DNA of 63,130 bases, the filler included, from Dugesia japonica (taxonomy: Eukaryota), in the NCBI GenBank assembly GCA_001938525.1. It is 5 parts of 5 records of this genome, joined end to end, with 100 filler letters (N's around TTAATTAATTAA, not from the genome) between each part and the next. Parts side by side here need not be neighbours in the genome. Positions count along the whole stretch, not along the records: positions 50,689 to 63,130 come from MQRL01612606.1; 4 more parts are not named here. One strand, written 5' to 3'. The position numbers and the translations under genes were made by a program. Below the pieces are notes generated by a model that made no database searches, had not been told where the DNA came from, and saw nothing but the letters and a program-made list of their open reading frames with translations. Positions 25,680 through 63,130 of the stretch are shown piece by piece. Position 1 is the first letter of the stretch; each line of letters begins with the position of its first letter.

Positions 25680-25792
25680 CCACTCCTCAACATTAATCGC
25701 ATGAAACTTCTTTTTCTTCAGAAAACTATATATTTTCTCATGGATTTTCGCTCTATTTTTCCACTTCTCTACTCCATGAGGACCTTCCTTGA

Positions 25793-28347: not shown

Positions 28348-31300
28348 TGTTATATAGAATACAGATAAATCCGAAGTTTTATTAATAATCAAAATCTGAG
28401 CTCTTTATTCACAATATTTAAACAACAACTAATTCGATAATTAATTGTTTTACATATATTCAATTTTAATTATAATAAATGAATAAATTACATTCCCTTA
28501 CTCAATGACTAATTGTATTTTGGATTTGGATTTCTAGTAGAGCAAGTTGGATGTCTTTTCTTACTGACTTGTTTATTTGTTCCTTTCCTGCTCTGATTAC
28601 TTGTACTTTGATATGTTGTCGTTTTGTCATTCTTGTCGACTAACGGAATGTGTTTGATCTGATTATAATTTCTCTATATTACTTAATGACATTTTTCATT
28701 TTTTAAGAGATAAGTCCATTCGTTTTTAATTGAAATATTAATAAAGGGTCCGATAAATCTTTGACCAAATACTTCCCTGTGTTCGTTTATCACTATTATC
28801 CGATCTCCCACTTTTAGTTTCTTATTCCATCTTGTTATATCATACTTTTCTGCTTTTCTATGGTTCATTGTTTCCACATTCTTTTTAACTTTAACTGATC
28901 ATAACGTTTTGTCTCAGCATCATTGTTTTTAGAAATATCGCAAAATTGTAGCCTTGATTAACGAACGAATATAATTTCATACGGGGAATACTTTGTTATT
29001 TTACGAGCAGTGATTCTCTATCGGTAAAACTTTGCTCAAATTCTTTAAATTCCGGTTCTCCTTTACTGCCTTTATCATGAATTTAACGGTTCGGAATGCC
29101 ATCTCTATCAAACCGTCTGATTGCTAATAATAAAATGAAGTAAATTATTTTTATATTCCTAATAAAGTACACAATTGTCTAAACATATAAGATGTAAAAT
29201 TCATTCCACAATCAGAGTGAATTTACTTCGGTATTTCTAATTTTGCAAACCAATGTAGGTCTTCAATATTTTTTTACGAATTTATTTGTTTTAACAGTAT
29301 AAGGCAAACATATTTTGAGAAATAATCATCACTGCGAGAATATGCATAAACTCATCAGTAGTTGAATTATACGGTTCACTTATATCTATTCCTATCATTT
29401 CGAAAGGTTCATTAGCGACTAATTCCGTAGCGGAGTTCTAATTCGGCCGTTTAAGTATTTATTTCTTTGGCAATATTCACATTTCCCAATGTAGTTCTTA
29501 ATGTGGCTGTCATATATGGCCAAAAGTAATCAAACGTAAAAACTTCTGTACATTTTTCTATTCCAATATGACAGACCCAAATGAAATTGATGTTTTATTT
29601 CTTCTCTTTTAGATGATTGAATAATTATGCGATATCAATCCCCTTTATAAAAATAAAGAGTATTTCATTTAAGTTGTAATTCTAAACTTAATTTGCAGAA
29701 TTTTAATCATTCAACGTTATCGATTATTTCACTCGCCGTGTTCTTCCACATTTCTGCCTTCCTTCATTAATTTAGTAATTAAGCTGAACTCGTCCTTTGG
29801 TATCTCCTTGTGTATCACGCTAAATAACCCTTTTTCAGCATCGTTGGATAAAGTCAATTCTGAGTTTTGTTTTGCAGTATTTATCAAATAGTCATTATAA
29901 ACTTTAGTGTTGGAGTTTTCTTTTGGGATCAGAATGTTTCATTGCGCATTGTTCACAAGGGGGCAATTGTTTTAATGCATCTGCATTGACATGATCTTTG
30001 CTCATTCTTAAAACTACCTTTATGTCATAAACTTCAAATCATGCCCGACCAACACAATATTGGGATGTATTTGGATTATTCCAATTCAACAACCATTTTA
30101 ATGTTTTATGATCCGTACGAACAGTAAATTTCTGTAAATGTGTAAATACAGAATAGATCTTTTCTGGTGATACAATATTGACGTTGGCACTTTGTTAATA
30201 ATTTACTAGCATAAGCAATTACTTTTTCTTCATTATTTTATAACTGAGATAAAACGGCTCTTATAGAGTCGTGAGAAGCATCTGTATATACTCACCATTG
30301 TCTCGAGGTAAACATAACGTCAGTGCTGAAATCAATTCGTGATGTAATTCAAAAAAAGTACTTATATTTATTCTGATCATTCAATCATCCTTTCATTTTG
30401 CAACATCAAAGATAACTCAGCAGACAATGCCACGTAATTCCTGATACATTTCCTGTAATAATTACAGAATCTCAGGAATGTCTGTAGCTCCTTTTTACAA
30501 GACGGTATTTCCCATTTTCTCATACTTTCAATTTTTTCTCGATCTGTTTGAATTCCATCCTTATTAATAATATGTCCTAAATATTTTACTTTTGTCTGAA
30601 GAAATTGGTAATTATCTGATGAAATTTGCAAGTTTGCTTCTTTTAATCGCATCAGTACACTGTTTAATCGTTCATTATGTTCTTCAATCGTCATGCCAAA
30701 AACAAGAATGTCATCCAAATAAAGTGAACACTTGATCCAATTTTCATTTCCTTGTACAATATTCATCAGTTTTTGAAAGGTGGCTTTGTGTCGAGCACAA
30801 TCCGATAGGCATTCTGTTGAACTCAAATTGATCATATCTTGTGCTAAAATCAGTTTTCTGAATATCTTCTTCTTTTATTGAGACTTCGTAATAACTACTT
30901 GGCAAATCTAGACTTGTAAAATATATTGAATCAGAAACGTTATCAAATAATTCATCTGCAGATGAAATGGAAAAAATTGGTCGAAATTTTTTTAATTTAA
31001 AGACAACGCATATCTTAATATTTCCATTATTTTTTCTAACAATCACAAGTGAAAAACTCCATGGAGACGAACTTTCTCTAATAATATCGTTTTCTTAAAG
31101 TTCATTAATCATTTTCTCAACTTCATTTCCTAAACTATTTGGCATTCTTCGAAGTTTAAATGCTATGGGAACATCATTCGCCGTTTCTATATCATCTTGG
31201 TGGTATTTATTCTGCCAATATCTATTTTATGTTTACTAAAAACATCTATATTATCACATAATATTCTCATTTGTGCCATAATTGCTGATTNNNNNNNNNN

Positions 31301-34901: not shown

Positions 34902-35088
34902 ATATCATTACATTTGTCATTTGATCAATATTTCACTATTCTAAAACAAACCAATATATTTTTCTAGTTAACCAAATAAATAATATTCTTATATTATATA
35001 AGATAATTATTTATTTGGTTAATTAGAAAATTCTATTGGTTTGTTTTAGAATATTGAAATATTGATCAAATGACAAATATAATGATAT
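34902..35088. repeat. Long near-perfect palindrome (foldback/MITE-like) in the aminopeptidase intron
   Basis: ATTTGTCATTTGATCAATATTTCA...TGAAATATTGATCAAATGACAAAT; arms about 90 bp with a tiny loop. Confidence 0.85.
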
Positions 35089-39060: not shown

Positions 39061-40807
39061 CGAAGCGATAACAAACATTATTATTATTATTATAATTATT
39101 ATAATTATTATGTTCACATTCAGTCTCAAAAGAACACCACCACAACAGTTTTTATCTAGGCTGTATTTGATTAAAAAAACAGCTACTCATCATAGCCAAA
39201 TTTGACTAGACGCAGATCCTCAAAATAGTCAAGAATTCCAACTCAACTTTTATCAATTCAATGCGTAACATTAAATACGCTATTTAATTAAATAACATCA
39301 TTAAGAAAAGCATTACTTATTATTATTANCATTAAATAAAAAATAAATCCTTACTTGTTATCATAGTTCATATAAAATTCACAATAGCTTTTATATTTTC
39401 AAAATATTGATCACAATTCTTAATAGGTTTTCATAACTCCAAGAATTTATATCATTAACTTCCACTTAATAACTTATACAATTATTATCTGAACATCAAG
39501 TTATTAACTGAAAATGTAATTAATAACTTTAAGAAAATCAAATTACTAACTTAAAAATTATTAGCTTAAAACAAAATCATTACCGTTTAATAAAAGTCAT
39601 CACCGAAGAATTATTAATATTTAATAAAACATTCTCATTAAATAAAAAATACATCCTTACTTGTTAAAAATTTACCATAAAAATTTAAGAATAAGTTTTC
39701 ANNNNNNNNNNNNNNNNNNNNNNNNNNNNNNNNNNNNNNNNNNNNNNNNNNNNNNNNNNNNATCAATCTAATATTAAAATTAAAACATAATAAATTTAAT
39801 ATACACTTACTAGAAAATTAAAATTTGAAATGTGTTGAAATAGTATCTACATCTTGCTTATATATTCAATCAATGCACAAACTATTTCATATGTATACAT
39901 ATTTTACTTAATATGGTAAAACAAAATATAATTTAATATAGTAATTAATTAAATAATTGTCAGCTATATTTTTAAATTTCAAATGGCTAAACAAACATTT
40001 ATTTAATATTAATTATAAATAGAAAAATTTGAAACTTATCGATTTTAAGCTAAAATATTTTAAAGCAAATGAATTTTAAACTTATGAACTTTATGCACAG
40101 AATTTAGTATGATGGAATGTAATTTTAGTGTTATACATTGTAATTTTAATGTGACAAACTATAATTTTAACGTACTGGTTTAGAAATCTTAAACGTCAAT
40201 TAATTTTTACATGTTGTTTATGAATTTTACAGGTTGGCTTAGAAATTTCATGTGAATGACTTACAGAAATGTGATAATAGTATTTGTATAATAGTATGAA
40301 ATTTGTAATGTAAATTTGAGAATTTGATGTATACCTATAAAATCTGTCTATATTTGTATAAAGCTTACATATTGATTAGTGTATATCCATTAGAATATAT
40401 ATGTTTTGATGATAAAATTTCTTATAACATCATTTAAAAATAAAATAAATTAGAAAACACTATTAAACACCTATAAAATTCATAAGAAATCCGATAATAC
40501 CCTATAAAATCTAATATGTTCATGTAAGCTCCTATAGAAACCCTATATATCATATAAAACACTATGAATCCTACAATACGATGTAAAAACCTTATAATGT
40601 GCTATAAAAATTCTAAAAAAGATGTAAATGCTATAAATACAATAAAAACCATCAAACCTTAAAAAATCTTAGAAAACTCTATAAAATCCCATAAAATACT
40701 AAAATTCTTTACTACAAGTCATTAAAAACTATAAAACAATTAAATCATGTACATAAATCTTAGCCTATTACATAATAAATTGCATAAATAATGTCTTGTT
40801 TCCTACT

Positions 40808-40863
40808 AAAGCACGTGTAAGGTGTTCCTAATTACGTAATTAGAAACATCTTACACGTACTTT
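40808..40863. repeat. Loopless palindrome
   Basis: AAAGCACGTGTAAGGTGTTCCTAATTAC|GTAATTAGAAACATCTTACACGTACTTT. Confidence 0.8.
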
Positions 40864-41929
40864 TTTATGCAACAGGTGCGATCTTATGTAATTGATTGTG
40901 AAATAGAACATATGTTAAACAAAAAATCATTAAAATAATTTAATTTAAACAAAAAAATAACGTAATCCGCCAACCTAAAAAAACAAACAAAACTCGGTTG
41001 ACAAAAACTTTCCCTCCGTTGGGGGGGGGTAGTACCGTGCGCTACTATCTATATACTATTATTATTTTATGTTTTGAAAAGCTGATTGAAATTTTTGTGT
41101 TTTGGTTGGAAATCTTATTTTTAAAATATTTTTTTAAAATTAAAAAAATTTAAAATTGGTAAGAAATTAAATTGTTAAAAATGTGAATTAGGAATATTAA
41201 ATATTTAGACAAAAATTAAGAATTAGTTAAAGAATAAAGGAGTAATATTAAATTTTTGAAATATAATTTTATCTATTTATCCAGAAATTGTCAAACGAAC
41301 AACCATTTTAATTTTAATGCTTTTTACAAATATTTCACAGCGATATATTTTGGAAAACAAACCTCGTTTATAATAGATATTTACATTGATATTTTATTAA
41401 AATAAATTACAAAACTATTTGGAAATTAAATGAAGTCATTAAGTTCAGAAAGACATGTATTTTAAGACATGTAAATAAGATTGCTTTTTAGTAATAAAAA
41501 GGATAAACTCCATTAGGTTTAACAGTGTAATGATTATTTAATATCTTTACATAAACTAGTACTTATTATAATATTTTTAAAAAAATGATCTGATTGGGAT
41601 GCAATTGATTTGTATTTACCTTTGAAAATGTACATTATGCACTAAAGAATATCCAAAAAAAAAATAATTACCGATTTCATAAACAGACTAATTTATTTGA
41701 AATTTAATTATGTAAAAATTATTAATTATACATAATAAATAAATAAATTAAAATAAAGTTTTTGTGAGATAATTTATTTATTCATTTTATGTTAAAATTT
41801 GAATAAACATTTTCCATAAAAATGTTTAATGAAAAAGTAAATGTGATCATTAAAAATCCAAAGTTATTTAATTACTAATAAATAAAACTATTTAGTTTAG
41901 AACAATAATTTTATTAATAATAAAAATAT

Positions 41930-42113: not shown

Positions 42114-42799
42114 GAAAAAGAACAATTGAAATAAACAAAATTTTAACATAGTTTTACATGATTTTGAACACATGAGAACCGATATAAATTAAAATAAAAT
42201 AATTAAAAATTACTTAACCTTTTTCTTTATAATTACAATTTAAATTAAATGGATTAAAATATAAAATTACAATTTTATTGGATAAATATGTATGATTTAT
42301 AGATGGTAGAAACCCTTCTGAATTTTTAAAATAGGCGACATAAACTCTAGCTACAATTTTGCTATAGCGAGGCAAATTAGATAAATGATAACAATTCCAA
42401 AACTTCAATTGTATGTTTGAGTGTGATGATGATTGCTTGAATACTTTTAATAATAAAATTGGTGTAATTGAAAATGACCTATGAATATATTGACTGATAT
42501 ATGTATACTTAAATTTTTAAATGTTGTAAGTTATAGCAAGGTCGATTTTAGACCTTTTAATAATATTAAAAGAAATGGAAGCTATTTCAATGAATTAATT
42601 GATATAATTACGAAAAAAAGTTTAACGAGTAAAACTATAGCTAAACAAATTGAAAATTATGCAATTTCAACAAATATTTTATTTATTTATTTTATTGATT
42701 ATTTATTGAGATTGCATAATTTAAATTATATAGTTATTTAAAATTTGAAAATAATTTGTTTTAATATTCTTTAAATTTAAAATGTTAAATTTAGTGACG

Positions 42800-45483: not shown

Positions 45484-45641
45484 NNNNNNNNNNNNNNNNN
45501 NNNNNNNNNNNNNNNNNNNNNNNNNNNNNNNNNNNNNNNNNNNNNNNNNNNNNNNNNNNNNNNNNNNNNNNNNNNNNNNNNNNNNNNNNNNNNNNNNNNN
45601 NNNNNNNNNNNNNNNNNNNNNNNNNNNNNNNNNNNNNNNNN

Positions 45642-45710
<69 letters not shown>

Positions 45711-45933
45711 TAGGGTAGAAAAAGTACGGCTGGGGAAAAACAGCCATCTGGGGTCCCCTTAAAGAATTTAATCTAATGTCCCTATTTAGATTTTCGGTAT
45801 AGAGCGGTTGACCTCCATTTTGATTTGAGGCGCACACTCGTATACCTTTAGTTCGAGTTCAATATTTTTCCCTTGTTAAAGTTAAGCCGATTAATTAATA
45901 AACTACTAGAACTAAGATTTATTTTGCTACATG

Positions 45934-46296
45934 TTACATAAGCTCGAGAGCACTCGGGTCTAACCACTATGTAGGTTTCTCGTCAACAAAGCCGAATGTG
46001 GCTTCGTCCTCGTTGTTGTCCCAACGAATCTACTCTTCATTTCCTGGTTGTTTGGCTAAGTCATCTATTTATTTTTGTAAGAAGTCGATTTTGTGTTGTA
46101 ATAATTGCTTAGCCTGCTCGGCTAATTCACCCTGTTTCTTTAGTATAGCATTCATTTTTATAATTAACTTATTTTTCTGGGACAGGTGCTTTAAGAGAGC
46201 CTTTTCGTTTCGTCTCTTAATGTGGCGTTCTAATAACAGTTTTTGAATGAGTCGATGGCATCTGCGCAAGCTATTAGGTAATTGGATTCGTGGCAC
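45934..46296 (-). pseudogene. Element ORF D (basic/coiled-coil plus acidic-aromatic tail), copy 1
   Basis: 363 nt, gap-free alignment to 60423-60785; three copy-specific stops; starts at TTTCATTTCAG|TG. Confidence 0.75.
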
Positions 46297-46455
46297 TGAA
46301 ATGAAAAATTATAATTAGTATCGATGACAGTTTAAATTACAGTTATCTTTTAATGACAACTAGAAATTAGTTCAGGTAAACATAATTGAATGAAACCAAA
46401 CTATTTCAATTTCAAAAGGAAACTTTTATTTACAACATTGGTAGTAACGAACGAA

Positions 46456-46784
46456 TCACGGCCGCAAAGTTTGGGTGCCTTTGTTACTCATAAGGAGTTC
46501 TAGAGGCATGACATTTTTTATTATCTCGGTCATGAAGGGACCGGATCATCTCCGCAAAAGACTCAATTTTTGCTTCCACAAACGTTCTTGCGCGTGATAG
46601 GCCTCGCCTTCCTAAAAGCTACACATATTGCCTTGTATCTTTTAACTTTACTTTCGGCCGACGCGGTGTCCACCTCCGAGCGTCTTTTTGCCAGACAGTA
46701 GAGGTCCCATGTCATCTCGGGATCCTCACTGCTTTCTCTGATTTTCTTCGTTGGGGCCGTAGAGCGGTTAAGAGAGGGATGCAC
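46456..46784 (-). pseudogene. Element ORF C (helical, ends NKGTQTLRP), copy 1
   Basis: HPSLNRSTAPTKKIRESSEDPEMTWDLY...ESFAEMIRSLHDR...KGTQTLRP* with frameshifts; starts at TTTTATAG|TG. Confidence 0.75.
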
Positions 46785-46973
46785 TATAAAATGAAGTTTA
46801 TTGATTAATATTACTAAAAGTAGACCAATTCATTATAAAGGAAACCATGGTACATTTTAGTTTACCCTAGAAGTAATTTAGAGGTCTTGACGCAAATACT
46901 TATTACTGAGACGATTAAAATGATTAACATCATTTATTAAGATACTAAAGCCAATCAAATAACAAAAACGAGT

Positions 46974-47399
46974 TCATGCGTTAATTGAAGTCGAGCCTAC
47001 ATTCTCATCATTACTGCTATCGGATGTGTTCCTTATGTTCCATAAATTATTATGAACAAAAGCCGTTAAATTGTAACTAGCAGGGAGATGACTCGTGACG
47101 ATGCCCACGAATGATGGACCTTCGAGCCATTCCCGGGTGATCTGTGGTTCTCTGCTAGCACTTAACTGGTTAGTTGTAATTAAATGGTACACTGCACGCT
47201 TGCGGTCAGGCCCGTTCCAGGTATAATAGGTGTGACGTTCGTTCGCAACTCATTCTCTTTCCTCCTCTGCAGTTTTAAACGACACATTGGCTCTACTTAC
47301 TAGGACACCGACATTTTGATCGTACAGATTTTTATATCTCTTAAAAACAATACGACCGATCCTTTTGTCAAGCAAAGTTTCCCACTTATAGTTCACCAT
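46974..47399 (-). pseudogene. Element ORF B (about 141 aa, unknown), copy 1
   Basis: MVNYKWETLLD...ANERHTYYTWNGPDRKRAVYH...PQITREW...NLTAFVHNNLWNIRNT; one in-frame TGA where copy 2 has TGG. Confidence 0.75.
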
Positions 47400-47509
47400 A
47401 AAAGTAAAATGGTAACTATTTATTAACATCGAAATTCACAATAAAACATTAATGTAATAAAAGATTCAACTAACAAGGTAACTGGTTTATTATTTATTTT
47501 ATAGAAACA

Positions 47510-47709
47510 TTAATTAGAATATTTTCGGTTTTTGGCATCTATGTCTACCTGAAAATTCAGTAGAAACATCTCGACGAAACACTGGAGGTCTGTCTCATCG
47601 GTATGTTCCACTAAGGAGGGAACTACAAGTATCCGATCAGTTGTTTCAGTCCGGCGGTCTTACGCTGTCTCAAAATCGTGCAAAGTGCCCTCTTTAATTC
47701 TGCGAGCAT
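47510..47709 (-). pseudogene. Element ORF A (about 60 aa, unknown), copy 1
   Basis: MLAELKRALCTILRQRKTAGLKQLIGYL...VEHTDETDLQCFVEMFLLNFQVDID, homologous to 59000-59182. Confidence 0.7.
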
Positions 47710-50700
47710 AATCTATAATTGGGTGGTTGATTAAGATCAACCCATTCATATAGTTATAATGAAAATATTGAAACTTATGGGAAGATCTATAGGTACTCGT
47801 AGGTATCTTAATGACGGCAAATAAACGATAGCGATGATAATGACAGGCTATAAAGTAGAATTAACCACCTTGTCGAAAATTCTAATTATACTGATGATAA
47901 CGATAGAGACCGGAATTACGTTACCCTCAAAATTAAGAAGTTTATAGTGCTTTTGTCAATTGATATGAACCCCAAGATGATTAATCAAATAACTATGCTA
48001 AAAATCCATAAGTATCAGTCGTGCAACTACTGTTATTAGTAGAGGTGATGGCAATGATGCTAATGATTGTAATGGAATTATGCCTTATAATAATAATATG
48101 ATCGTCAACAATAACAACCATAATGACAATAACCGTGATGAGATTGGTGATCATAAGGCTCAGAATCATGGTAATTTTATTAGTAATAGTATTGATAGTT
48201 TTCATAAAGATAAGGAATTTAGAATTAACGAAAGCGGCATCACAAATAACACTTCTAATAATATTACCAATAAATATAGTAATAACTAGAGAATGAGCCC
48301 TACAAAAAAATAGTAATAATATTGGTCAAGATGTTAGAATCTGAAGACGTAAATAATCAGGAAAACAGCAATAGAGAAAGCAATACTAAAATTTCACTAA
48401 TTTTCCTAATATTGTTATATATAAGAAAAGGACTAATTTCTTGGTAATAGCAAATAAAGGTCAATTCATTATTAATAACAGCTTTAGCGTTGATACCAAT
48501 TTTACCATTAATAATATAATAATGACTGTCGCCTTGATGATAGTAAGTCGCATAATAGCCCTAATAATAACAGTAAACGCGTTCATCATAATATGGTTGG
48601 CCACAATAATTAGTATGATAATAAAATTATTAATATCGATAATCATAATGATAGAAAAATTATACAATGACATTCGTATGATAATGAGAATAATTATATC
48701 GTACTAATAATAATGACTATAAGGAAAATAAGAATTTTAATTATATGATGATAATTTTTCTTATAACCCATAATGGCAATCATTAAGTTAGTACGACAAG
48801 ATTACTAATTATGCCACTTACAACAATTCTCAATGAAAAACTACTTATATTCTTATATCACCGACAATTGCATCATTTTGATCCTATACAGACAACCATG
48901 GAAAAAACTACTTATTTTATTAATGAGAATTCGGAAAATCAATTCTATCCTCGTGGGTAAAATGAGCTAGTGAAAATTGCGATACTAATGTTGCCGGCCA
49001 TATTCTTAAACAACTATCATCGATTAACTACTATCCTCTTCACTGATGACTCAATGCACCACATATTTATTTCGTGAAATTAGTTGTTTGGATGTAGATT
49101 GTTATTATTAATCACCATTGAAGAGAGTTGAATACCTTAGCTTGTAGATAGTTTTAGCAGAAAATTTTTAATGAACTTCAGTTAGGATTTATGATCCGTG
49201 ATTATCAACTCTCGAAAAAAAATTAATATAGTACTCGTCAGATTTGGATTTATTAGTGTTAAAAGTTGCATATGAATCCATTCATATCACCCAATAGGCG
49301 ATTAAACTGCTGTTCAGATATCATTGGTATATTATGGATTTATGACAGAACAGATCGCAAGATGGAATTAAAGCTGTAAACAATTATTGCAGAAAACCTA
49401 AATTGCCAGTTGTTGATTTTAATAAAAACATTTCATTCATTCCTTTATCTTTTCATTTTTTCTTATTTAAAAAGAATAATTTAAATATTCAATCATAATT
49501 AATGTATATATTTTTTCGATTATAACACATATGTAACATATATAACTACACAGTTAAGAAAACAAAACATTTTTACTTGTTTCAAAAATATCTTTAGATA
49601 TTCTACAACGGGTATCCCTCGGCTTTTCTTTTTTAGTGAATTATGAAATGTCCCTGGTATTGGTAGTATTTCGTTTTCTTTCTGATTCTTTTTTTTAACT
49701 ATAATCAGTACGGGTTGAATCACCACTAATATTACTATTTTATTCGTCCAAATATGGCAACAGATTTTTTTCCAAAATGAATCTCTGAATACTGCAGTTA
49801 TTTGATTACCACTACGTTTTCTTGTTCTCAAAATAATAATGCGATTCACTAGAATTGGTATTTTTGATAAAAGTTAGTTTTTTTGCTAAGTTTTTCTCGA
49901 TGCTTTTATAGTTTTTCTCATGCATCCCAGCTATCTCCCTGCTGACTGGTTATTTTTATTTTCAGCTTCTTGTTTTTCATTAGTTTTTGGTACAAAATTC
50001 TACAATTTTTTACCATTCTCTGCTACACTATTGGTGCCTATTTTTGGAGAACCATGTGGTTTTTCATTCTTTGTTTTAATTTTCTTTTCTGGTCTCTTAT
50101 TCGCCCATTCTTTCAACCCTTGTAGAAACCCTCCTGATGATGATAAGGTTTTCTGGTTGCGAAATCCTATTGCTACTTGTCATTTTCTTTTCGACGTTTC
50201 TTGCTACAGGTTCCTGTGATTCTCCTGAGTAGAGTTAATCGACCAAAACTGATTTTTGTCTAATTTTAATTCTTTTTTGTGGTAAATTAATTAATTTTCC
50301 TTTATTAATTAATTATTATTTTCTCAACCATTTTCTTATTTTTCTTTTTAAGAATTATAATTCTCCTAATTAATAACTTGATTTCAACCACTATTTTACC
50401 CACTTGATGCTTTCTTTCTACATTTAGCTTTTTCACCAGTTTTCGTATTAGTGTAATTATTGTAATTTTCTCCTCATTACTAATTATCTTACTCATTTTC
50501 TTTTTCTAATCTTCTTCTTTACGAATTGGGCTTCTGGCTTTGTTTTTTCTCAAACCGGGTGTTTCACCCCAACATTATTATTATTATTNNNNNNNNNNNN
50601 NNNNNNNNNNNNNNNNNNNNNNNNNNNNNNNNTTAATTAATTAANNNNNNNNNNNNNNNNNNNNNNNNNNNNNNNNNNNNNNNNNNNNTTAATAATTATG

Positions 50701-50775
50701 ATAATAATAATAATAAAAATAATATAGTAAATTTCTAAAAGTTCCAAATAAAAATTCTGAAAATTATCCTATTAC

Positions 50776-53700
50776 CTTCTATCATACTAGTGGCCAAAGC
50801 TTCAATATCTTGTTCAGATTTTTTTCCTTGCTGATTTAATGACATTTCTTTTACTTGAAGATCGTTTCGTAAATCTACGTTTAAATCTACTTAATTCCTT
50901 ATTTTAAAAAAATGAAACAACACCTCTAGCTTCTTCTTTTAATCGTTGAACAGTTTCAACAAGAGTTTCTTTTTCTTCCAATTCATTTTCCAAAATAGCA
51001 TTTTTCTCAATTGCCTTAAAATGAAAATTTTTATTAAATTATACAGTAAAAAGGTCAAGTGATGACGCAATCAATAATAATAAATTTAATTATTTGTTGA
51101 TCATACAAAAAACAAAAACATNATTATAATAATGCAGTCTAGATATTTGGAAAATGTTTTATTTAGAAAAATCAATTTTCTATCATTTATTTATTTAATT
51201 TTAAATTTAAAATTATTAACTTGTTCTTTGAAAAATAATTTTATCCTTATGAAAGACAGTAGTTACTATCTAAAAATGCTTTCTTGTACCTTTTATCCAT
51301 TGAATCAAATTGTTTTCCAATAGCTCACCTCGTGAAGCGACAAGATACTGGAAGTGCGCTTTATTCTCATGTAGTGTGACAGCTCCAGAAGATATGAAGT
51401 TGTTAGTAAATTTAAAAATGATCATCACCTGGGAATTTCAATATTCGATAAAGTGATGAGTTTGTTCAAAATAAAGTCATTAATAAAGTAAAGCTCGAAG
51501 GTCTGATATTAGGATATACCCCAAGATAGAAATGAATGCCATAACCGCATAATTGATNCAANACNAATGGTATTATCACACTCGAAGAGTTCATTACAGC
51601 GATAAAACTATGGTTGAATGATTAAATAAATTCCAAATACAAAATTACGGTTATCTTTGTTATTTGGAAAAATGATAAATGAGAGGTTTTTCCTAATTAA
51701 AAATTGAACTTAAAAGGCGTATATTGATTTAAAATTTGGGAGCAAAAATAAAAAAATATCGAAATTCCAAATAAAAAAATTATATATAATAAAAACGTTA
51801 TTCCGTCTATCATAACTTCTCCTGATCTCTGGATCAATTCCAAGTTTAAAAACGGAGACTGTAGAGTCCTTGCAGTGTGTGTTTGTAAATTCCCTGTTGG
51901 CAATGTTATAATTGCGGAAGTAGAACGNNNNNNNNNNNNNTATGAATGTCCGATAAGCTGCTATCTTTTGCCATGGAAGCAAAACAGATTGAGAGATCTT
52001 ATCTAAGTCACTGATAACATTTTTTGACCAAACTATTCAAGATATCTTAGAGATGTTAAGAAGTATAATGTAGATTTTTAAAGATAAACCAAACGCTTTA
52101 AAAAAAATTCGTGGAAAATTTTTGGTTTGAAAGATATCAACTGATAAAGGGTTAATTTTTGACTTTTCTTAAATTTAAAGGCTAGAAACGAAAAATATTT
52201 TGAAAAAATTATTGTATTTAAAGTTTTAGCGAACAATATATCATTCACGAAAATCGATTCAGTTGTTTGCGAGATATATGCATAATTTTGAAAATTTTCA
52301 TGTAACCAATTGGTCGTGAAGGCACATGAAAAATCAGAAGTCCTTAAATATTAATGCATCAGTGATTGTGATGTATTTTTTGATAAACAATTTCCTCATT
52401 CCAGCTATGCAATTATATTAATTTGTTGAATAAAAATAGTGAACACAATCAATAACTTCAATTTTTGCTTTTTAATTTGGTTGTTGTTCAAGTTTATAAT
52501 TGTTTTATCCAATCACGTTTAATAATTCAATCGTTTTAGAATTATTATTGTTATTACATTTAAAATTTTATTATCCTATCGAGATTAATTAGCTTAAATA
52601 ATTAAAAATAGAATTAAAATGTGACCAAGAAAAAATCAAAATAATCAATAAAATGAACAGCGTCATTCAATAAGATTAAGAAACACGACTGCGTATAATG
52701 AACGACGATTAGTAGAACAAAATCAAGTTAAAACGTCAATCAGACGACAACCTAATCAAAGATAACGTCATAGATTTTTGAATAATTCATCTTCTGATCA
52801 GATTCAAAATCGATGAATACCAAATACAGAAGCTTAAACCATACATAGTGCTAATGAAACTGCTCAACAAGTATCAAATCGATTTAATGCGTCGATTTAA
52901 TATGAAAATGTTATCTATCATAAAGTTTTGTAATAAACCCTTATATGTTTTTTCATTTCAAAACGAATCTTTACAAATGACACACAAAATAACGGTTTAA
53001 GTTGAAAATATTCAATGAAAGTAAGAATAGCTGGAAATTGCACTCACTAAGCGTTTAAAAATCGAGCACAATTTAAACTTTAAATTAAAGTGTTTTTGTT
53101 CATATACTTAATTCTGAACGGCAACTCAACTGTAAGAAATCAAACGGAGCGATGTCAAGTGAGTCCAATTTCTATTTCATAATAAAAAAAAATTCCAAAT
53201 AAAAAAATTCCTAATAAAAAAGTAATTTCAAATAAAAAATTTCCAAAAAAAATTCAAAAAAAAATTCTAAATAAAAAAAATTCCAAATAAAAAAATTCTA
53301 AATAAAAAAAATTCCAAATAAAAAAATTCTAAATAAAAAAAATTCNNNNNNNNNNNNNNNNNNNNNNNNNNNNNNNNNNNNNNNNNNNNNNNNNNNNNNN
53401 NNNNNNNNNNNNNNNNNNNNNNNNNNNNNNNNNNNNNNNNNNNNNNNNNNNNNNNNNNNNNNNNNNNNNNNNNNNNNNNNNNNNNNNNNNNNNNNNNNNN
53501 NNNNNNNNAAATTTGAAATAAAAGGGTTTTAAAATAAAAAAATTTCTAAAAAAAATTTCATTCCTAAAAAAAATTCAAAAAAAGTAAAAGTAAAAATCGA
53601 AATAAGAAATTTGAAATAAAAGGGTTTTAAAATAAAAAAATTTCATTCCTAATAAAAAAAATTCTAAACAAAATAAATTCCAAATAAAAAAAATTCTAAA

Positions 53701-55066
53701 TAAAAAAATTTCCAAATAAAAAAAATTCTAAATAAAAAAAATTCTAAATAAAAAAAATATAAAAAAAATAATTTGAAGTAAAAATCGAAATAAAAAATTT
53801 GAAGTTTTCTAAAAAAAATAAAATTCCAAATAAAAAAAAATTCAAATAAAAAAATATAAAAAAATTTCAAATAAAAAGAAATAAATAATAGAGTAATAAA
53901 TAATAAAATTTACACCGCTGAAATGTTAAAACAAACACAAAACGCGATTTATTAAATTCACAACAAACCAATAAATAATTGCAACAATGTTCTCACAACT
54001 TATAAATGATTTCTATAAAGCCTTTTAAATGCACCAGTAAATGATTTATGTATGATTTATGATGACATTATAACAAATTATCTAATGAAAAGTTAAATTA
54101 ATTTTCTTACTAAAGTAAAATCCGAAGCAAAAAATGCCTAAAATAAAGATTTATCCCTGAAAATACAGAAAGATTCATTCAAGGAAAAGATCAAAGCAAC
54201 GGAACAATCAGATTTACTAAATTTGATTCAGAAATTTGTTNNNNNNNNNNNNNNNNNNNNNNNNNNNNNNNNNAAATATTCAATATAGCGAGGAAAACGT
54301 GTCCATTGAAAAGTTTTATTTAAATATGCAAAATAGAAAGTTGTATTGTTACTAAATAACATAAAATTAAATGTCATTGAAAGCTGATAGCAGCAATTTT
54401 AATCAATGATTATGATGTAAATAGTAATGTACTTAGATTAGAAATAATTGATTTCAATTACAAAATTATTTATTTATGAAAAATTTCACTTTTAATTATT
54501 TTAATAATTATTTTTGAAAATCAAAATAAATAAATATACTTCACTTACTAAATTTAGTTTCTCTTCAAAATCTTCCAATGACATAACTGTAACTCTAATT
54601 TTTAAACNNNNNNTTTTTTTTTCATTAAAATTATTAAAACCTTTTTGCTCTTTCCAGATCATCATTTGTCTGTTCTAATTCCCTGACATATTTCTGCAAA
54701 GTAGATTTTTCGTTTTTTAATCTAGTAACTTCATCTTGGCAGTCTGACATTTGATGATTCATATTAGTTACAGTTTCTGAGTAACGAATAGATAAGTTCT
54801 CTAATTCAAGACTTAGTTTTTCATTCGCTACCATTAAGTTTTTATTTCTTGATTCATAATCGTTTAATTGCAGCTCTAATTCATTTTCTAAATCCCTGCT
54901 GCTAATTTCAAAATTCTGAAATTCCTCTTGAGTTTCTCTAAGTCTAAAGCATTATTGTTAACCAACCAACAAATAGAAAATAAACAAACTCGTCTTGTAA
55001 AATTTGGGCTTTATTTCTCCAAAATTCAATTTCATCGTCTTTAGAATCAAACTCCGCCTCAGTCAT
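50776..55066 (-). CDS. NudE: NudE/NDE1/NDEL1 dynein regulator; exons 55066-54990, 54943-54641, 54594-54549, 51014-50924, 50874-50776; 3' exons not seen
   Basis: GT-AG joins keep frame: MTEAEFDSKDDEIEFWR...EEFQNFEISSRDLENELE...[48 protein letters not shown]...VQRLKEEARDLRNDL. Confidence 0.93.
53170..53880. repeat. A-rich minisatellite (about 16-17 bp, AAATAAAAAAAATTCY) in NudE intron 3
   Basis: Visible tandem units on both sides of a gap. Confidence 0.9.
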
Positions 55067-55989
55067 TTATATTTATAAATTCAATTTTTTTATTTTTCAA
55101 ATATTGATTAATAGTGAATTTACTAATCATATAAATTAGAAAATTGAAACAAGAAATTATTAGCATTTAAAATTTAAAATGATTAATAAAATTTCAAAAT
55201 AATCGAGAAAATATTAGAATTTAAATTTGTGATAAGCTAATAAGCATTATTTGAAACCCATTTTAAACTTTGAAATAAAAAGTAAATTTTAAACTTTAGA
55301 AAATCAAAGCAAATCTTCAATTTAATTTCAAATTTGAAAACTTCTATATTAACCAACCAAAAGTTTTAAAAAAATAATTTAAACTTTTAAAATTTTAATT
55401 TGAATGATGGAAATTATAAGATTGAAATTATTAATGTTAATACACATGAATAATTTTAAAATATCAAATCAAGCACAATTATACAGTAAAATCTATTAAT
55501 CACAAATACAAAGGGGCCTAAGTTGAGTTACTTCGTTGCATGATGGTTCTTTGTAAGAAAAGTTTTTAACAATGTTATATTTCAACAAATTAGTCTGTTC
55601 ATTTAATAATTAAACAGAGTTTTTGAAGTTTCATTTATATTAATAAAAAAGTGAAAAATATTTTTTACTTAAGAGACAAAAGAATGCATAATGACATTTA
55701 TTCCAAGTGCTACGATTTTCAGGTAGCCAAACTACGGTCTTTTCATTATAGCTTTTCATTATGTATGTCACATATTTTTAAATTTTAATTTTTATACTTA
55801 ATTTTAACTCGGTCAATTGGAATCATCTATTCCTTCTCTTAGATGTATAGCCTGGATAACTATTAGGTAACCAAAAAAGTTCTTTTGGTTTTTAAATAAA
55901 TAATACTCAGATTTTTTATTTCAAAATTAGACATCGTAATTATTAAAGTTTATTAAAATTAAATATATCAATAATATTTTTCTTAATCT

Positions 55990-56270
55990 TTTTGACCATC
56001 TGTTTTCTTAGCCACTTGATCCTTCTAGGTTTAGGGATTCCAGAATAACTTAATAGCACTTGAATATTTCAAAAGAACATTTATATCTGTATCTATTTTT
56101 CTTTAAATTATTTTCCACTTTTACTAGAACTTCTTCCCCTTCAACAAAATTTCGATGTACTCTTTAATCTGATTAATATTCATTTAATTCTAGTGCCGCA
56201 TTTTTTATATTTTTATCAACTGATTCTCTAACTCTATCACTGCTTGTATTGTCATTTAATAAAGTCCATG
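55990..56270 (-). mobile_element. Gypsy integrase C-terminal remnant
   Basis: RVHRNFVEGEEVLVKVE resembles RRHFQVGQWVLVR of the element at 23.4 kb. Confidence 0.5.
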
Positions 56271-58999
56271 AAAGTAGGTAAATGTGAACGCACCAGATCA
56301 CTCCAGCCGAGGGGGAGTGGTCCGAAGCGCTTACATGAACCGTTTGACCTACTGGTTATCAAGGACCACCTTAATTTCAACTCCTAATCTCATATACATT
56401 TGTTACAGTTTTCAATGTAGAACACAATTTCCTTTAGCTTAAAGAGTCACCATTAGCTTTTTTTACTTTACTAACTGGAGTGCATTAATATTCTGCTGTT
56501 ACTAGAAGATCCTTTAGATAGTTAGGGATAACAATGTCTCCCTCCATTATGCATCCGTACGACATTGCATCTAACTTCAATGTCTTACATTACTGTAATA
56601 CTGATTCTAAACCAGTATTTACACACTCAAAGTCTTTATATAGTGCTGGGGCAAAACACCCGACTAAGAAGGGAAACAAAGGCCAGAAGCCCAAACCCTT
56701 ACAGTAATGAAGAAAAATTAGGAAAGAAGGATAATTAAGAAAGCTAACTAAGGTGAAAAGTGTGAAAATTATCAACCAAAGAAAGCAAGCACAAATAATC
56801 ACTATGATTGAATTATGAAGAAAAAATAATTAACCAAAAGTTCAAAAGAAAGGCATGAAGATCTTGGTGAAACGAATCTAACTCACATCGTTCACAGTAA
56901 TCAAAAGAAATTAATAATTCAATAGTAAAAATCAAGAAAATTATTTTTTAAGAACAATTAATTATCTAAGAACTATTAATTAATTTGGAAATAAAATAAA
57001 ATAAATTTAGTCGAAAATTCGGGTTATACTAATAACTTCGCTCAGAAAAACCAGAGAGAGTTCAGGTAAGAAAATCTGAAAAGAAAACGATGAGAAGCAT
57101 TAGAATTTTGCAAGAAGAAACGTTTGCCACCATCAGAGGAGCTACCACATGAGTTGAAAGAATGGGCCAATAACAACCCAAGAAATAAAAATAAAACAAA
57201 GACTTAAACATCACATGGGGGTTTAAAAATAGATGCCAATGGCGTAACAGAAAATGGTGAAAAATTCTTAGAAATCTAAGTCTACACTAATAGAATCACA
57301 GAAATTTAAATTAAAATTAGACTACCAATAGCGATGATGCCGGGTTGCATCCAGAAAGCTATTTAAACCCCTCAAATTTTAGTCAAAATATCTAGAAAAA
57401 AATTTGTATTAGCTGTTATTGCAATTTGCGTAAATCAGCACATCAATTTAAGCGGAATAAATCTGTTAGTAAATAGATCAACCAACTTTCAAGGAAAACC
57501 ACCATTATCGACTAATACAGTGGTCTAGTTATTAGTTGTATTTCATTCAAATCATAGTCAAATTTTAGACAAATAAAGCCTTGTTTAATCCACAAGCAGG
57601 AGAGAAATTACTATTGAAGATTCCGTTATTGTCCTCATTACCGTTGCGACGAAGCGAAAAGATATTTATTTAAAAGCAAGCATGTGTGTTTTACATTGTT
57701 CGATTTATTAATGTAGGAAATGTGGTTAAAATTAATTATCAATAAAATGTATCACTAATTGTTATTTATTTAATCTTTATGATATTTCTATAAACATGTA
57801 TTTACAGATAATGATGACCTGACTGTCAATCACCCAGTGAATATCAAATAAGCTTAGCGCTGTTTCTTTTTCTCCTCGTGTCTGTAACATTTGCTGAATA
57901 AGTTTCAATAATCCGAACTTGTTGCTCACAAACATCTGGCAGGCGATCTAACCACTAGATTACTATTAAATTAAAACGGAATTTCCTCTCCAGATTTAAA
58001 CACACGTGCAAGCCTGTATGTGACCACACTGAATCTGGTTTACACGAACAAAAGTAAAATTACCGCGTTAAACTGCAACTTCATGATATAAAGTGAAACA
58101 CACACTCTTGCCAGATATCTAATGGAATAATGCATACCTGTGTAATGCAACAGCCAGTTAATTGCATAATTTAGTTTCTCTGTTATCACGTCATCAAGTA
58201 CGAATTTTTCATGATGTTCGTCAATTGCCAATCAATAAAGCATGCACCGATAAAATCAAGTTACATCCCTGCAAGTATGCATGGGGTTATTACTGTATCC
58301 ATAATGTCCGATGTTGAATCCATTAGATAACAGTCCATATGACATACATTATTTTTCTTTTTGGATCATTATTTATATTTGACTGCAGTTGTATAGACAT
58401 TGTTTCTGATGAGAAACCAGATTTGTCGCCAACAACGTACTAAGGAAAGAGATTATACTTTTCTTGTGGAGAACTTGATGGGTTTATCTCTGGAATTAAA
58501 TCAGTAATTGTAAGCTCATGTTGGCGTAAATTGATAGTAGTCTAAATAAAATTCTTATGCTACATTAGATCACGATGGTTACCACTAACAACATGATTAT
58601 ATTACTGTCTACTATTATTCGTAACACTCCTTTTCTCCAAATTAAAATTGGTATCAAGATGGGTGTGAGTACAACTAGGATATTTATTGGTATGGATACT
58701 GCTGTTGTTATTTCTACTATTATTGATAATATCATTACTATTATAATTACTAATAAATTCATCAGTATAGCGGACCTATTAATATTAATGTACAAACATA
58801 ATTGATCATTAACATAATCGGAATTAAACCCAGTAACGGCCTCTTGTATAATAACCAACACTAGTCGTATGATTAATGATATAAGTTGTAATGCGAATAC
58901 CATAAGATGCATTTTTGTTTTTATTGTTTTGTATTGCCTTCCGGGGCCGCATCACTCTTATTATCCCATTATAAACTAAGTTTTCGTTCATTTTAAAAA

Positions 59000-59182
59000 A
59001 TGACTGATGAGTTAAAAAGTGCTCTCAAAATAATTCGAAGGCAGNGCAAGGCAGCTCGTTTAAGGCAATTAATCGCCCATTTATTATCGCGCGGTAGAAT
59101 TGAACATCCTGACGAAACAGATCTGTGGTGTTTTGCCGAGATGTTCCCGCGGAACTATAATGTAGATATAGATGAAGAGTGA
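59000..59182 (+). CDS. Element ORF A, copy 2
   Basis: Open 60-aa frame conserved with copy 1 (ELK.AL..I.RQ.K.A.L.QLI..L...EH.DETDL.CF.EMF..N..VDID). Confidence 0.65.
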   Translation: MTDELKSALKIIRRQXKAARLRQLIAHLLSRGRIEHPDETDLWCFAEMFPRNYNVDIDEE

Positions 59183-59325
59183 TCATCCTGTTTTGTGTAA
59201 TTTGGTTTAAATAATCAATTAAATCTTCAGACTGAGTTTATTTTATTTTAATTTTTTTAATTTGCCACATTATATTCTAACGTATTTAAATATTGTTAAT
59301 AAATGTCAAAAATATAATTTTAAGC

Positions 59326-59763
59326 ATGACGCACAAATGGGAAATTTTGCTAGATCGTGCCACGAGTCGAACCGTGTTCAAACTGTATAGGAATCCCCAC
59401 AATAGAGATGCCGGGGTTCTGGTTGACAGAGCCAATCTACTCGTTGAAGATGCAAACGATGAACGCTAGTGGGACGCAAATGAGCGCCACTTGTATTATA
59501 CCTGGAATGGTCCAGATCGAACGAGGGCCGTATATCATGTAGCCCCCCATTGCAACAGTAAACGGAGATGGCATGCCCCAAATTACTCGCGAATGGTACG
59601 AATGACCCTCACTGGTGGGTCCTAATCAACTCCCAATCAACTCCCTCCATTCTCCAATTTAACCGCGTTTGTGAACAACAACCTGTGGAGTATCCGTAAC
59701 ACAGAAAGCAGCGGAAGTGCTGAGAATGCCGACCCCAACCCCGTGCTCGAAACTGTATTGTAA
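59326..59763 (+). pseudogene. Element ORF B, copy 2
   Basis: MTHKWEILLD...ANERHLYYTWNGPDRTRAVYH...PQITREW...NLTAFVNNNLWSIRNT with stops and frameshifts. Confidence 0.75.
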
Positions 59764-59917
59764 CATGTAAGTTTTGCTTGACACTAATAAATAGTCTTTT
59801 CTTAACTTGAGTTTAGTTTTGTTTACTAATTCCGAAATTAATAACAAATTAAGAGCTGTAGGCGACTGAATTTAGAATTATCTTAATTACAGACATCATT
59901 TTATCTTTTTATTCATA

Positions 59918-60277
59918 GTTCATTCCTCACTCAACCGTGTTACCGCTCCAACAAAGAAAATCCGAGTGGATAGCGAAGACCCCGACATGACATGTGAGCT
60001 TTATCGACTTGCTAAGCGTCATTGGGAGGCTGACATCTATACGGCCACAGCCAAAGTGAAACGTTATAAATCTAAATGTATTTCGTTTCGAAAAGAAGCA
60101 GAAGCCTCCCATGCACAGAAGCGGCTGTGGAATACCCAAGCCGAATCCTTCGCCGAAATCATCCGGTCCCTCAATGACCGAGAGAATAAACTGGTTAATG
60201 ATTTCTTGGAATTACGAAAAAGGATACCCCTTAAACCACTGTTGATCGATAAAGGTATCCAAACCTCTCGACCCTGA
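59918..60277 (+). CDS. Element ORF C, copy 2 (acceptor-started terminal exon, ends DKGIQTSRP)
   Basis: Open frame from TTTTTATTCATAG| to TGA, followed by AATAAA about 20 nt later; conserved with copy 1. Confidence 0.7.
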   Translation, partial: VHSSLNRVTAPTKKIRVDSEDPDMTCELYRLAKRHWEADIYTATAKVKRYKSKCISFRKEAEASHAQKRLWNTQAESFAEIIRSLNDRENKLVNDFLELRKRIPLKPLLIDKGIQTSRP

Positions 60278-60422
60278 CTATTTTTTGTATCTGTNAATAA
60301 ATGTATCCTCGCTTTTGTACTGATTTATTTTTTGTCGACTGTCTCTAAATACAGCATTTTCTCACTAGTTAAATGTGTATAATGAATAGTCTATGATCTA
60401 TCTAATAGTTCTTTATTTTTCA

Positions 60423-60785
60423 GTGCCACAAATTAGACTTCCGACGAGTCGACGCCGTTGTCACCGACTAATTACCAAGTTGTTACTAGAGCGTCATCTC
60501 AAACGACAGACTAAACGTGCCTTACTCAAACATCTCGCACAATGAAATAGGCTTATAAAGAAGCGAGATCTAATCGTTAAGAAACAGGGATGTCTAGTCG
60601 AAAAAACGAAACAGCTCCTTCAAAATAAAATCGATTTTTTGAAAAGATATATTGCAGATTTATCTCGCCAGCTCGATAATGCGTCATGGTTACAATGAAA
60701 CGACAATGACGACGAAACTGCNTTTAATTTTTTAGATGATGATTCCACTCAGTGGTTAGACCCGGGTGCTATGGATTTCATGTAA
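60423..60785 (+). pseudogene. Element ORF D, copy 2
   Basis: TTTATTTTTCAG|TG PQIRLPTSRRRCHRLITKLLLERHLKR...KQLLQNKIDFLK...WLDPGAMDFM*; two copy-specific stops. Confidence 0.75.
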
Positions 60786-62454
60786 TATGATATAAAGTAT
60801 AAATTAGTTTTAATGATTTGTTAATTAGTTTTGAGTATAATATAAAAGGGGGAAAAAAGAACCCGAATTAAAGGTGTACGAGTGTGAACCTCACATGAAG
60901 TTGAAGGTCAACCACACTAAATTGAATATCTAATTTAGGGACATTAGATTAAATTCTGGAAGGGGATCCCCTGAGGCCCGTTTTCCCCGGCCAGCGTTTT
61001 CTTTCATCACCAACTCAGGTGTACCCCAACAATAGTAATTATTATCATACATTATCCGTTGGTAAAACTGATTCAAAATCAGAGTATATGACGAATGTTA
61101 GTTTCATTGTTTTAGAGAAATCCCTAAACTCTAAGTTTTTATCTGATGGCTTTGTTTATAATGTTGTTCTGGGTTTGAATCTCCTCATAAATTATCTCAT
61201 GCTTCTCAAAAGCTATTTCCTTTCTAAATCCATTTAAGCAATTTGGACACCATATTGTTTGGATTCTTGTGTCATTTTTATCTCTCTCTATTCATTAAAC
61301 TGTCCAATATAATTACAGCTGTGTAATGGTAGTCGTTACTTTTTTCTAACATCAGCAAATATACCATCTCTCCATCAACCATCTTTGACCTATGGATGAT
61401 ATCTAAATTGAAATGTTTGAAAACATCTTCATCACTATCTTCCACATCGTCTGAACTCCATGAACGAACATTGATTAAAAGTCCTAAATTTTTTCTTTCA
61501 ATTTTTCTAATATTATTAAGTCGCATTGGCATGTATGATTCTTCATAATCATACTCAGACATATATTTTTCATTTTTTGATGGTCTACATCTATTTGATT
61601 GCATATAAAAATACTTAGTAATAGCTAAAATGCTATAAATAAAGCATTTATATTCTCTATTTTGAATGTTAAGAATTGCACTTTTCTTTATCAAATTCGT
61701 TGGTGTTGGTATATAACTATGACCCGACTGAATTCAAGTCCGGAATCAATAAATCAAGTTCAAATGAATATAAAACTAAAAGCGCTAGCAATTGCATTAC
61801 AACAATAACATGAATACAGACTGACAAGAGATCCAAATACTTTAAGTAATTTCGTTTGCTTAATAATTTATTTTAATATTATAATTTCAGTTGTCAAATG
61901 TCATACCGAATAATCACTAGAATATCGAATACATTGGGTTTTAATTAAAAAACTTTAACAATTTATAAGAGTTTTGATTTATAAAATCTAATATAACAGA
62001 GTTATATATTAATAAGAGGAAACTAATTATTTATAAAAATATTTATTCAATCTTTTGAGTTGATTTAATTTTCCATATTGGTTTTACNATATCGTCTAAG
62101 TTTTTGTAACCAATAATTTCACCTGTAATCATTGATTTACTATCTTGAACGTTATCTTCCCCTGATTTGATAAATGTTGTATCTTCAATCTTCATACTGT
62201 TTTNNNNNNNNNNNNNNNNNNNNNNNNNNNNNNNNNNNNNNNNNNNNNNNNNNNNNNNNNNNNNNNNNNNNNNNNNNNNNNNNNNNNNNNNNNNNNNNNN
62301 NNNNNNNNNNNNNNNNNNNNNNNNNNNNNNNNNNNNNNNNNNNNNNNTAAACAATTTAAGAGTCAGTTTTGGATAACTTAGAAATAGATTCCAAGTTTAA
62401 TTTCTTACTGAAATTTATTTGAAATTATTTACATTTTTTTCATTTTATCTGTCT

Positions 62455-62605
62455 TCAAATGAGACACATTTTAGACATTGCTTCATCAATGGGTTCCGTC
62501 TGAATAATAATGCAACGGTAACTACCAAAAAAATATTTTTTGTCAGTTTATGGTGATGCGATAAGTGTCCGCAAATGCCACGAACGGTTCACCAAATTCA
62601 TAGTA
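62455..62605 (+). mobile_element. mariner transposase N-terminal remnant
   Basis: ETHFRHCF...NNAT.TTKKI...YGDAISVRKCHERFTKF. Confidence 0.6.
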
Positions 62606-63130
62606 GATAATTTGGAATATTTTTTTCAAAAATTTACTGATCATATAAACATTTTAATATTAACAAAAAATTATTAAATATTATATTTAACTTTTAAAAA
62701 ATTAAATATAGATTGTATGAAAACAATTTTCAATGACTCATAATAAAATAATATTTTTTACTAATGAATAAGAATTGTCATTTTTTCGTTAATCCAAATT
62801 GATGGTTCAAATTCCGAATGAAAATATCATAATTTGTTTTGATAAAGTTTCACGGAAACTAATTGCTATCGAACAAATGCTTGAAAAATAACCCATTCAA
62901 AACAAAATTTTCTTTTAAAAAATATTTGACCTGAAATCTAAGATTGTCACTAAATAAAGAAAAACCAAAAAAATAGGCGTCATTCTAATTATCAAACTTG
63001 TCAAACAGTAATTATTTTCCATTTAATTTTTGATGTTTAATTTCAACAACACACTGACTAACATGATTTAATAGAAATTTCAAACACCTTTTTCACTGTC
63101 AATAGAAAATTATAAAAACAAGAAAACGAA

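Follow-up and report, generated by a model that had tools for sequence, protein, structure and literature searches.

A probable solo long terminal repeat carrying four formerly selected small genes, two of them as putative spliced terminal exons, in the planarian Dugesia japonica

In complex retroviruses, the accessory genes HIV nef, MMTV sag and foamy virus bel overlap the U3 region of the long terminal repeat (LTR) and are expressed from spliced RNAs. Among Gypsy-type retrotransposons, Burro of planarians exceeds 30 kb, with an internal region of up to 25 kb, which implies multi-kb LTRs, and carries accessory open reading frames (ORFs) (PMC6431247); Drosophila Gypsy-group families generate 4-bp target-site duplications (TSDs) at ATAT or TATA targets (PMC3276498); and the env gene of errantiviruses is completed by splicing, either to a short peptide or to an AU that belongs to the start codon (bioRxiv 10.1101/2023.08.03.551782). 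In the present work, we analysed a 63,130-nucleotide stretch of Dugesia japonica DNA (hereafter the window), which consists of five parts of five records of assembly GCA_001938525.1 joined end to end with filler, and a 4388-bp element within it at 56644-61031 on the plus strand (copy A). In our judgement copy A is probably a solo LTR left by a large Ty3/Gypsy retrotransposon; its U3, of about 4.2 kb, would hold accessory genes, two of them as spliced terminal exons.

Copy A starts with TGCTGGGG at 56644 and closes with CCCCAACA at 61031. The tetranucleotide ATAG flanks it on the left (56640-56643) and on the right (61032-61035), a flank match with a chance of p 0.006 given the local composition, and the 4.4-kb element with TG...CA ends and a 4-bp TSD described in the original prediction is thereby borne out. 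The terminal inverted repeat is perfect over 8-9 bp, and gapped similarity between the ends extends to about 17-20 bp. The presence of TG...CA ends with a short inverted repeat and of a 4-bp, A/T-rich TSD makes membership in Ty3/Gypsy likely. Ginger1 and Ginger2 share the TG...CA ends and the 4-bp TSD, and Ginger2 favours A/T-rich sites, whereas copy A has no transposase, a far shorter inverted repeat and asymmetric ends (PMC2836005). Ginger1 was rejected by its inverted repeats of 40-270 bp and its CCGG or CCGT duplications, and Ginger2 by its inverted repeats of about 50-180 bp; the six bases at the copy A target are TATAGT, compared with the RTATAY within which Ginger2 duplications lie (PMC2836005). 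Similarly, a Polinton/Maverick identity of the 4.4-kb unit was rejected, since the TSD is 4 bp and not 6 bp, the ends are TG...CA and not of the AG type, and no polymerase lies inside (PMC6839031). The original prediction had taken the ends for a Gypsy- or Ginger-type integrase footprint and had left the choice between a solo LTR and a non-autonomous, virus-like cargo element; the footprint holds and the solo LTR is favoured, but Ginger membership falls on the length of the inverted repeat.

Copy A is hosted by a broken DNA polymerase gene on the minus strand, the upstream part of which lies at 61054-61733 and the downstream part at 56380-56639. Both flanks resemble a separate DNA polymerase copy at 600-3400 on the plus strand, which is also broken and is 66-72% alike to the host gene of copy A; the polymerase matches are to PHROG 1907 (E 5e-6 and 3e-5), and the polymerase copies have no Pfam match. 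On the 600-3400 copy, the right-flank match ends at about 1495 and the left-flank match begins at about 2315. The host gene thus lacks about 820 bp, and the gap lies no more than 25 bases from the right end of copy A, so that the TSD is better evidence for the insertion point than the reading frame. Insertion into a polymerase gene stands, but the predicted rejoining of its frame comes down to a continuity of two or three codons beside this gap.

Three further copies or fragments of the element were located in the window. Copy B (45711-50574, minus strand) belongs to a diverged subfamily, and is 64% identical to copy A over 56644-57394 and 61% identical over 58990-61002, with the order unchanged. 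Copy B lacks its final bases and is bordered by AAT runs on both sides; it therefore offers no independent TSD, and the ATAG of copy A is the one clean case. The middle of the element (57400-58990) is poorly conserved: over these 1.6 kb, comparison with copy B was unconvincing at the protein level, and the DNA match was weak and A/T-rich (z about 6). The middle barely aligns, and the predicted collinearity of the second copy is therefore limited to the two outer blocks. A plus-strand fragment at 10465-11050 carries the left end of a distant relative, with weak similarity (z 3-4) past its first 20 bases, and another at 22755-22803, about 50 bases recognised by eye and followed by an AAT run, carries the right end, as had been noted for both places. 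Of the four insertions located here, two adjoin an AAT run (chance per site 0.002), and these runs may have grown after insertion. In three copies, a subterminal copy of the end motif lies 30-45 bases inside the right end (60976-60992, 45729-45745 and 22755-22770). A further TGTTGGGG occurs at 11836, and similarity to the element does not extend beyond it.

The left block of copy A (56644-57394) is A-rich and conserved, and is likely regulatory. In the stretch tested (57079-57264) it is non-coding, with differences of 15, 15 and 14 by codon position and a ratio of nonsynonymous to synonymous differences (pN/pS) of 0.96; a fifth ORF there was rejected on this lack of codon-position bias. Just 5' of ORF A, a 3-periodic low-complexity tract, N/D/S-rich on the opposite strand, is found in both copies (58520-58750 in the middle of copy A, and 48000-48700), and may be the remnant of an antisense gene or of a repeat. 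When the minus strand of the middle was read by eye as RING/IAP-like, neither copy B nor Pfam supported this.

In contrast to the left block, four coding blocks, A to D, were under past purifying selection in the ancestors of the element. The pN/pS of copy A against copy B, calculated from pairwise gap-free blocks after exclusion of codons with stops, N or gaps and of out-of-frame stretches, is 0.21 for ORF A (49 codons), 0.30 for ORF B (115 codons), 0.21 for ORF C (87 codons) and 0.26 for ORF D (114 codons), with bootstrap upper limits of 0.30-0.39. Over the 365 pooled codons, the differences by codon position are 101, 72 and 221 (221 of 394 at third positions), with a pS of 0.86 and a pN of 0.22; synonymous sites are saturated, and the ratios are therefore upper bounds. 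Because these blocks came from tblastx, the count was repeated on a DNA-only alignment, in which the ORFs gave 119, 92 and 245 (245 of 456 at third positions), and no codon-position bias appeared in any of three spacers or in the terminal block. The internal stops sit at different codons in the two copies, both of which are broken now. The third-position excess, the copy-specific stops and the selection that had been claimed are all found in these data, and the per-ORF ratios, which might have lain near 1, range from 0.21 to 0.30.

All four coding blocks lie on the plus strand of copy A. ORF A (59000-59182; 60 aa) has its own ATG in both copies and contains an EHxDETDxxC motif. ORF B (59326-59763; about 140 aa) has an ATG near its start in both copies and is disrupted in copy A by stops and frameshifts; an outside relative on a 512-bp ENA contig (P0121; 94 aa, E 3e-14) has the same initial Met and is open where copies A and B have stops. 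ORF C (59919-60277; 119 codons, open in copy A) holds a basic PTKKIR motif followed by a coiled-coil-like stretch, and ORF D (60424-60785; 120 codons, with two internal stops in copy A) has a basic N half, a heptad stretch and an acidic aromatic tail. The conservation of C and D starts at an AG behind a T-rich tract, with TG next to the AG in three of four cases. The first ATG of C is codon 24, behind conserved coding sequence, and D has no shared in-frame ATG until its last codon. The notion of four small ORFs conserved in order therefore holds for the order of four coding blocks, but not for C and D as ORFs, which have no start codon where their conservation starts.

The acceptors predicted for C (59905-59918) and D (60410-60423), each a pyrimidine tract with AG, are both in phase 1 and rank second and first, respectively, among 42 shared YAG sites; CTAAT lies about 22 bases 5' of the D acceptor in both copies. 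An AATAAA follows ORF B at 59786-59791 and ORF C at 60296-60301. Overall, AATAAA occurs within 45 bases after six of the eight stops (p 1.6e-4 against a background of 0.14; the copies are related, so these are not eight independent trials), and ATTAAA or TATAAA follows the other two. The stops and AATAAA signals are followed by A/T-rich spacers of 110-190 bases and then by an acceptor. From this arrangement of signals, C and D have the appearance of terminal exons that are joined by splicing and have a poly(A) signal each, rather than of free ORFs. Among 75 shared GT sites 5' of the acceptors there is no strong splice donor (the best has 4 of 7 consensus matches), and therefore the unit looks incomplete alone.

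Stop, AATAAA, A/T-rich spacer and acceptor in this succession also resemble the spacing of an operon. In flatworms, the spliced leader has AUG as its last three bases, and gaps of up to 300 bp are common within operons (PMC12582326); a flatworm-style operon resolved by trans-splicing, in which the terminal AUG of the leader is the start, is an alternative reading. However, the acceptors are in phase 1, a full AUG opens just 15-23 codons in all four cases, the frame that it sets is unselected (pN/pS 1.45 and 0.99), and D reaches its last codon before a shared in-frame ATG. A whole-AUG leader is out of frame at both acceptors and trans-splicing is therefore rejected for C and D, which leaves the operon very improbable.

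Cis-spliced terminal exons within a solo LTR, the reading preferred here, have partial counterparts in Drosophila elements. As in the errantivirus subclades springer, ZAM and Beagle, a downstream ORF without a start would be completed by splicing, and the TSD is of the 4-bp A/T type of the Gypsy group; in errantiviruses, however, there is one env ORF, 5' of the 3' LTR, with a two-base donor part (bioRxiv 10.1101/2023.08.03.551782), whereas here the LTR itself is predicted to contain two small soluble phase-1 ORFs, for which no spliced read was seen. The sORF1 and sORF2 of the MDG1 group are selected accessory ORFs of 70-110 aa with alternative poly(A) between them and a nuclear sORF1, but they lie 5' of gag and are unspliced, and sORF2 has a membrane helix, which A-D do not (PMC11952523). 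An sORF2/FAST-like fusogen was accordingly rejected, as a transmembrane helix with an N-terminal glycine motif was not found: the highest 19-residue hydropathy is 1.1 in five of five translations, which leaves no membrane helix in A-D. Complex retroviruses differ in that one gene overlaps a U3 of about 1 kb or less, whereas here four genes, each with a poly(A) signal, would share 4.2 kb.

The right end of copy A may be an LTR promoter region. The only TATAWAWR on its sense strand, a TATA-like box, lies at 60841-60848, 18 bases 5' of the point at which family conservation begins (60859). The terminal block that follows (60859-61031, plus strand) is the best conserved non-coding part of the element (76% identical to copy B) and is the predicted R-U5. 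It folds no better than shuffled sequences (z -0.19), an Rfam search over 45600-61200 returned nothing at E 0.1, and it contains a weak shared donor preceded by A at 60882, a candidate only. Judged by these signals, copy A reads as a U3 of about 4.2 kb with all genes, followed by R-U5. The LTR might instead be read in the opposite direction, with A-D as antisense genes driven by the left block. HBZ of HTLV-1 is a precedent for an antisense gene in an LTR element, the left block is conserved and non-coding, and internal poly(A) sites would then not clash with genomic RNA. However, there is no shared minus-strand TATA near the left end, the left block contains no strong donor common to both copies, and the predominant right-end flank is not the complement of a polypurine tract (PPT); we regard this orientation as improbable.

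No transposase and no recognisable protein had been seen in the element, and protein searches agree with this. Pfam searches of all 12 frames of copies A and B found no reverse transcriptase (RT), integrase or transposase and only sub-threshold matches, and neither PDB nor PHROGs (none below 0.06 for A-D) gave a significant match. Matches of BRE1 to ORF C (E 6e-5, below the cut-off) and of IMD to ORF D were rejected as generic coiled-coil matches, and the best PDB sequence match of ORF B, to Spc24 (E 0.019), vanished once P0121 was added; another PDB match had E 0.025. An Atlas search of ORF C returned unnamed clusters only, with low recognition, and one of P0121 gave no usable match; an AlphaFold model of ORF B from three sequences was unusable (pLDDT 35). 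A profile search with ORF B and the first half of C against 1.84 billion representatives found one relative of B, the unnamed P0121. ORF C has no relative among proteins of 65-209 aa, nor ORF D among those of 66-210 aa. These results bear on whether captured host exons are carried passively by a transposon. The acceptor-stop-poly(A) units do resemble host terminal exons, but the scarcity of relatives in size-matched proteins and among the representatives, together with the selection between two element lineages and the retained order and spacing, renders such capture hardly credible. In composition, ORF C combines its basic motif with heptads, and in ORF D the net charge per 30 residues changes from +8 to -9 across a heptad stretch. 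The prediction for C and D, drawn solely from composition, is that both are coiled-coil proteins of the nucleus that regulate the element, D being basic and zipper-like with an acidic tail.

The element is a large, old family. Across 54000-63130 in two DNA-like runs, summed contig depth, which does not equal copy number, is 12-24 in the least repeated bins outside the element versus 37 to about 9000 over element bins. In three runs of the same organism, 750, 764 and 697 contigs align to the last 214 bases (70 in a run of another organism), in line with the multi-copy family that was anticipated; in run X1, 618 of the 750 are less than 95% alike. In 43-53 contigs per run, family conservation begins at 60859. 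In the three runs, 26, 31 and 33 contigs share the right terminus and then enter variable A/T-rich flanks starting with ATA, which is what independent solo or 3' insertions would give. The majority flank at these junctions is also no PPT. No related locus was found in metagenome and viral contigs, and one candidate, L001, was discarded as a 19-base chance match.

Among described elements, Burro (GYPSM1), with a polyprotein of about 4900 aa, may be taken as the nearest host-matched candidate. It is alike in its implied multi-kb LTRs, thousands of copies, accessory ORFs and likely the same kind of host; compared by description only, it differs in that its accessory ORFs are described as internal and none within the LTRs in the part available (PMC6431247). 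Six S. mediterranea elements appear in supplement 1 of PMC13524379, none with an LTR given. On the reverse strand of the S. mediterranea GLT2 probe (PMC8532177 supplement, available in part), a T-rich tract, AG, TG and a K/E/Q/A-rich frame of about 78 codons can be seen by eye, like exons C and D; this likeness is a lead only, and one primer is unmatched in the window at 3 mismatches. If GLT2 is of this kind, the element class is already named, while its genes seem undescribed in the searchable literature. Among titles and abstract openings, no ORFs inside planarian LTRs were described; subscription papers, Repbase and Grohme 2018 may hold such a description, and an annotated LTR may match the element.

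Based on the results presented above, a mechanism can be proposed for the solo LTR. A Gypsy integrase would insert the full element at an A/T-rich site, and LTR-LTR recombination would leave a single LTR. Transcription of the full element would start within the terminal 170 bases of the 5' LTR, and a donor in that LTR end or in the lost leader would splice to acceptor C or D of the 3' LTR, with a separate poly(A) site for each product. One base would come from the upstream exon: an A would complete the start codon, and otherwise a short leader peptide would be continued. ORFs A and B would start at their own ATG.

Several observations weigh against the solo LTR. In copy B the TATA box has decayed, although five other matches are present there, and poly(A) sites internal to U3 would require read-through by genomic RNA. 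The majority flank at the right end (26-33 junction contigs per run) is not a primer-binding site (PBS), though collapsed contigs could mask one, and no copy paired around gag-pol was seen, copies A and B being inverted and about 61% alike. The right-end subterminal repeat of the end motif is a trait that DNA transposons share. The mirror antisense frame of the ORFs also has a low pN/pS (0.27-0.43), and therefore the strand is assigned from the lower sense ratios together with the poly(A) and splice signals. The predicted protein roles derive from composition, and no family, structure or fold was matched significantly. Finally, the RNA sequencing check that had been suggested gave little. Depth on the element is 0-2 in two poly(A) RNA runs, each read to about one quarter, no transcription start site was seen, and among the joints listed none falls at either acceptor; in one run, 12 reads match ORF C up to 60195 and diverge after it, which suggests a transcribed relative.

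Some of these observations would suit a cargo element that is self-contained but non-autonomous, mobilised as DNA by an external Gypsy-like integrase or transposase and transcribed from the conserved left block. Single copies only were seen, the right-end majority has no PBS, both ends are conserved with gapped similarity and a subterminal repeat, and Ginger elements likewise have TG...CA ends, 4-bp TSDs and non-autonomous copies (PMC2836005). However, the 8-9-bp inverted repeat and a target other than CCGG or CCGT do not fit, no strong conserved donor lies inside, the strict TATA is 3' of all four genes, and selection on four genes over saturated divergence is easier to account for in an autonomous element. 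We therefore consider such a cargo element unlikely and prefer the solo LTR. A more specific form of the latter is put forward tentatively and is open to more doubt than belief: an invertebrate Gypsy-type virus with a regulatory gene array in a 4-kb U3, alternative terminal exons and a tiny leader donating the A of the start codon, so that four orphan regulator genes would be dispersed with every solo LTR, preferentially to AAT microsatellites.

Other features were recognised in the window. A decayed ordinary Gypsy (22930-27248, minus strand) has short LTRs 97% alike over 250 bp, a PBS starting with TGG, a PPT, and zinc knuckle, RT, RNase H and integrase domains; as a parent of the 4.4-kb unit it was rejected, because its LTRs are short with different ends. 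Two RT fragments on the minus strand, at 19029-19451 and 30377-31094, appear by eye to be non-LTR or Penelope-like and Gypsy-like, respectively. A host NudE/NDEL1 exon (54637-54951, minus strand; PDB 2v71, E 3e-15) is covered by RNA reads, and copy B may sit in an intron of this gene. An intact single-exon deoxyhypusine hydroxylase gene lies at 7662-8561 on the plus strand, with closest relatives, all unnamed, at 86, 73 and 55% and named ones at 46% or less among 120 listed, as would be expected of a fast-evolving animal. A TBP-like fragment (21918-22175, plus strand; Pfam TBP, E 1e-10) has a broken intronless frame and possibly comes from a large DNA element. Palindromic stretches occur at 34902-35088 (92% self-complementary over 187 bp), 14583-14749, 40765-40906 and 42637-42737.

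LTRs are usually annotated as non-coding. If the reading of copy A as a solo LTR is true, an invertebrate retrotransposon would have the expression plan of a complex retrovirus, with a U3 that holds four selected genes, acceptors and separate poly(A) signals, and four orphan protein families would be added. In addition, acceptors and poly(A) sites that could cut host transcripts short would have been dispersed with hundreds of solo LTRs.

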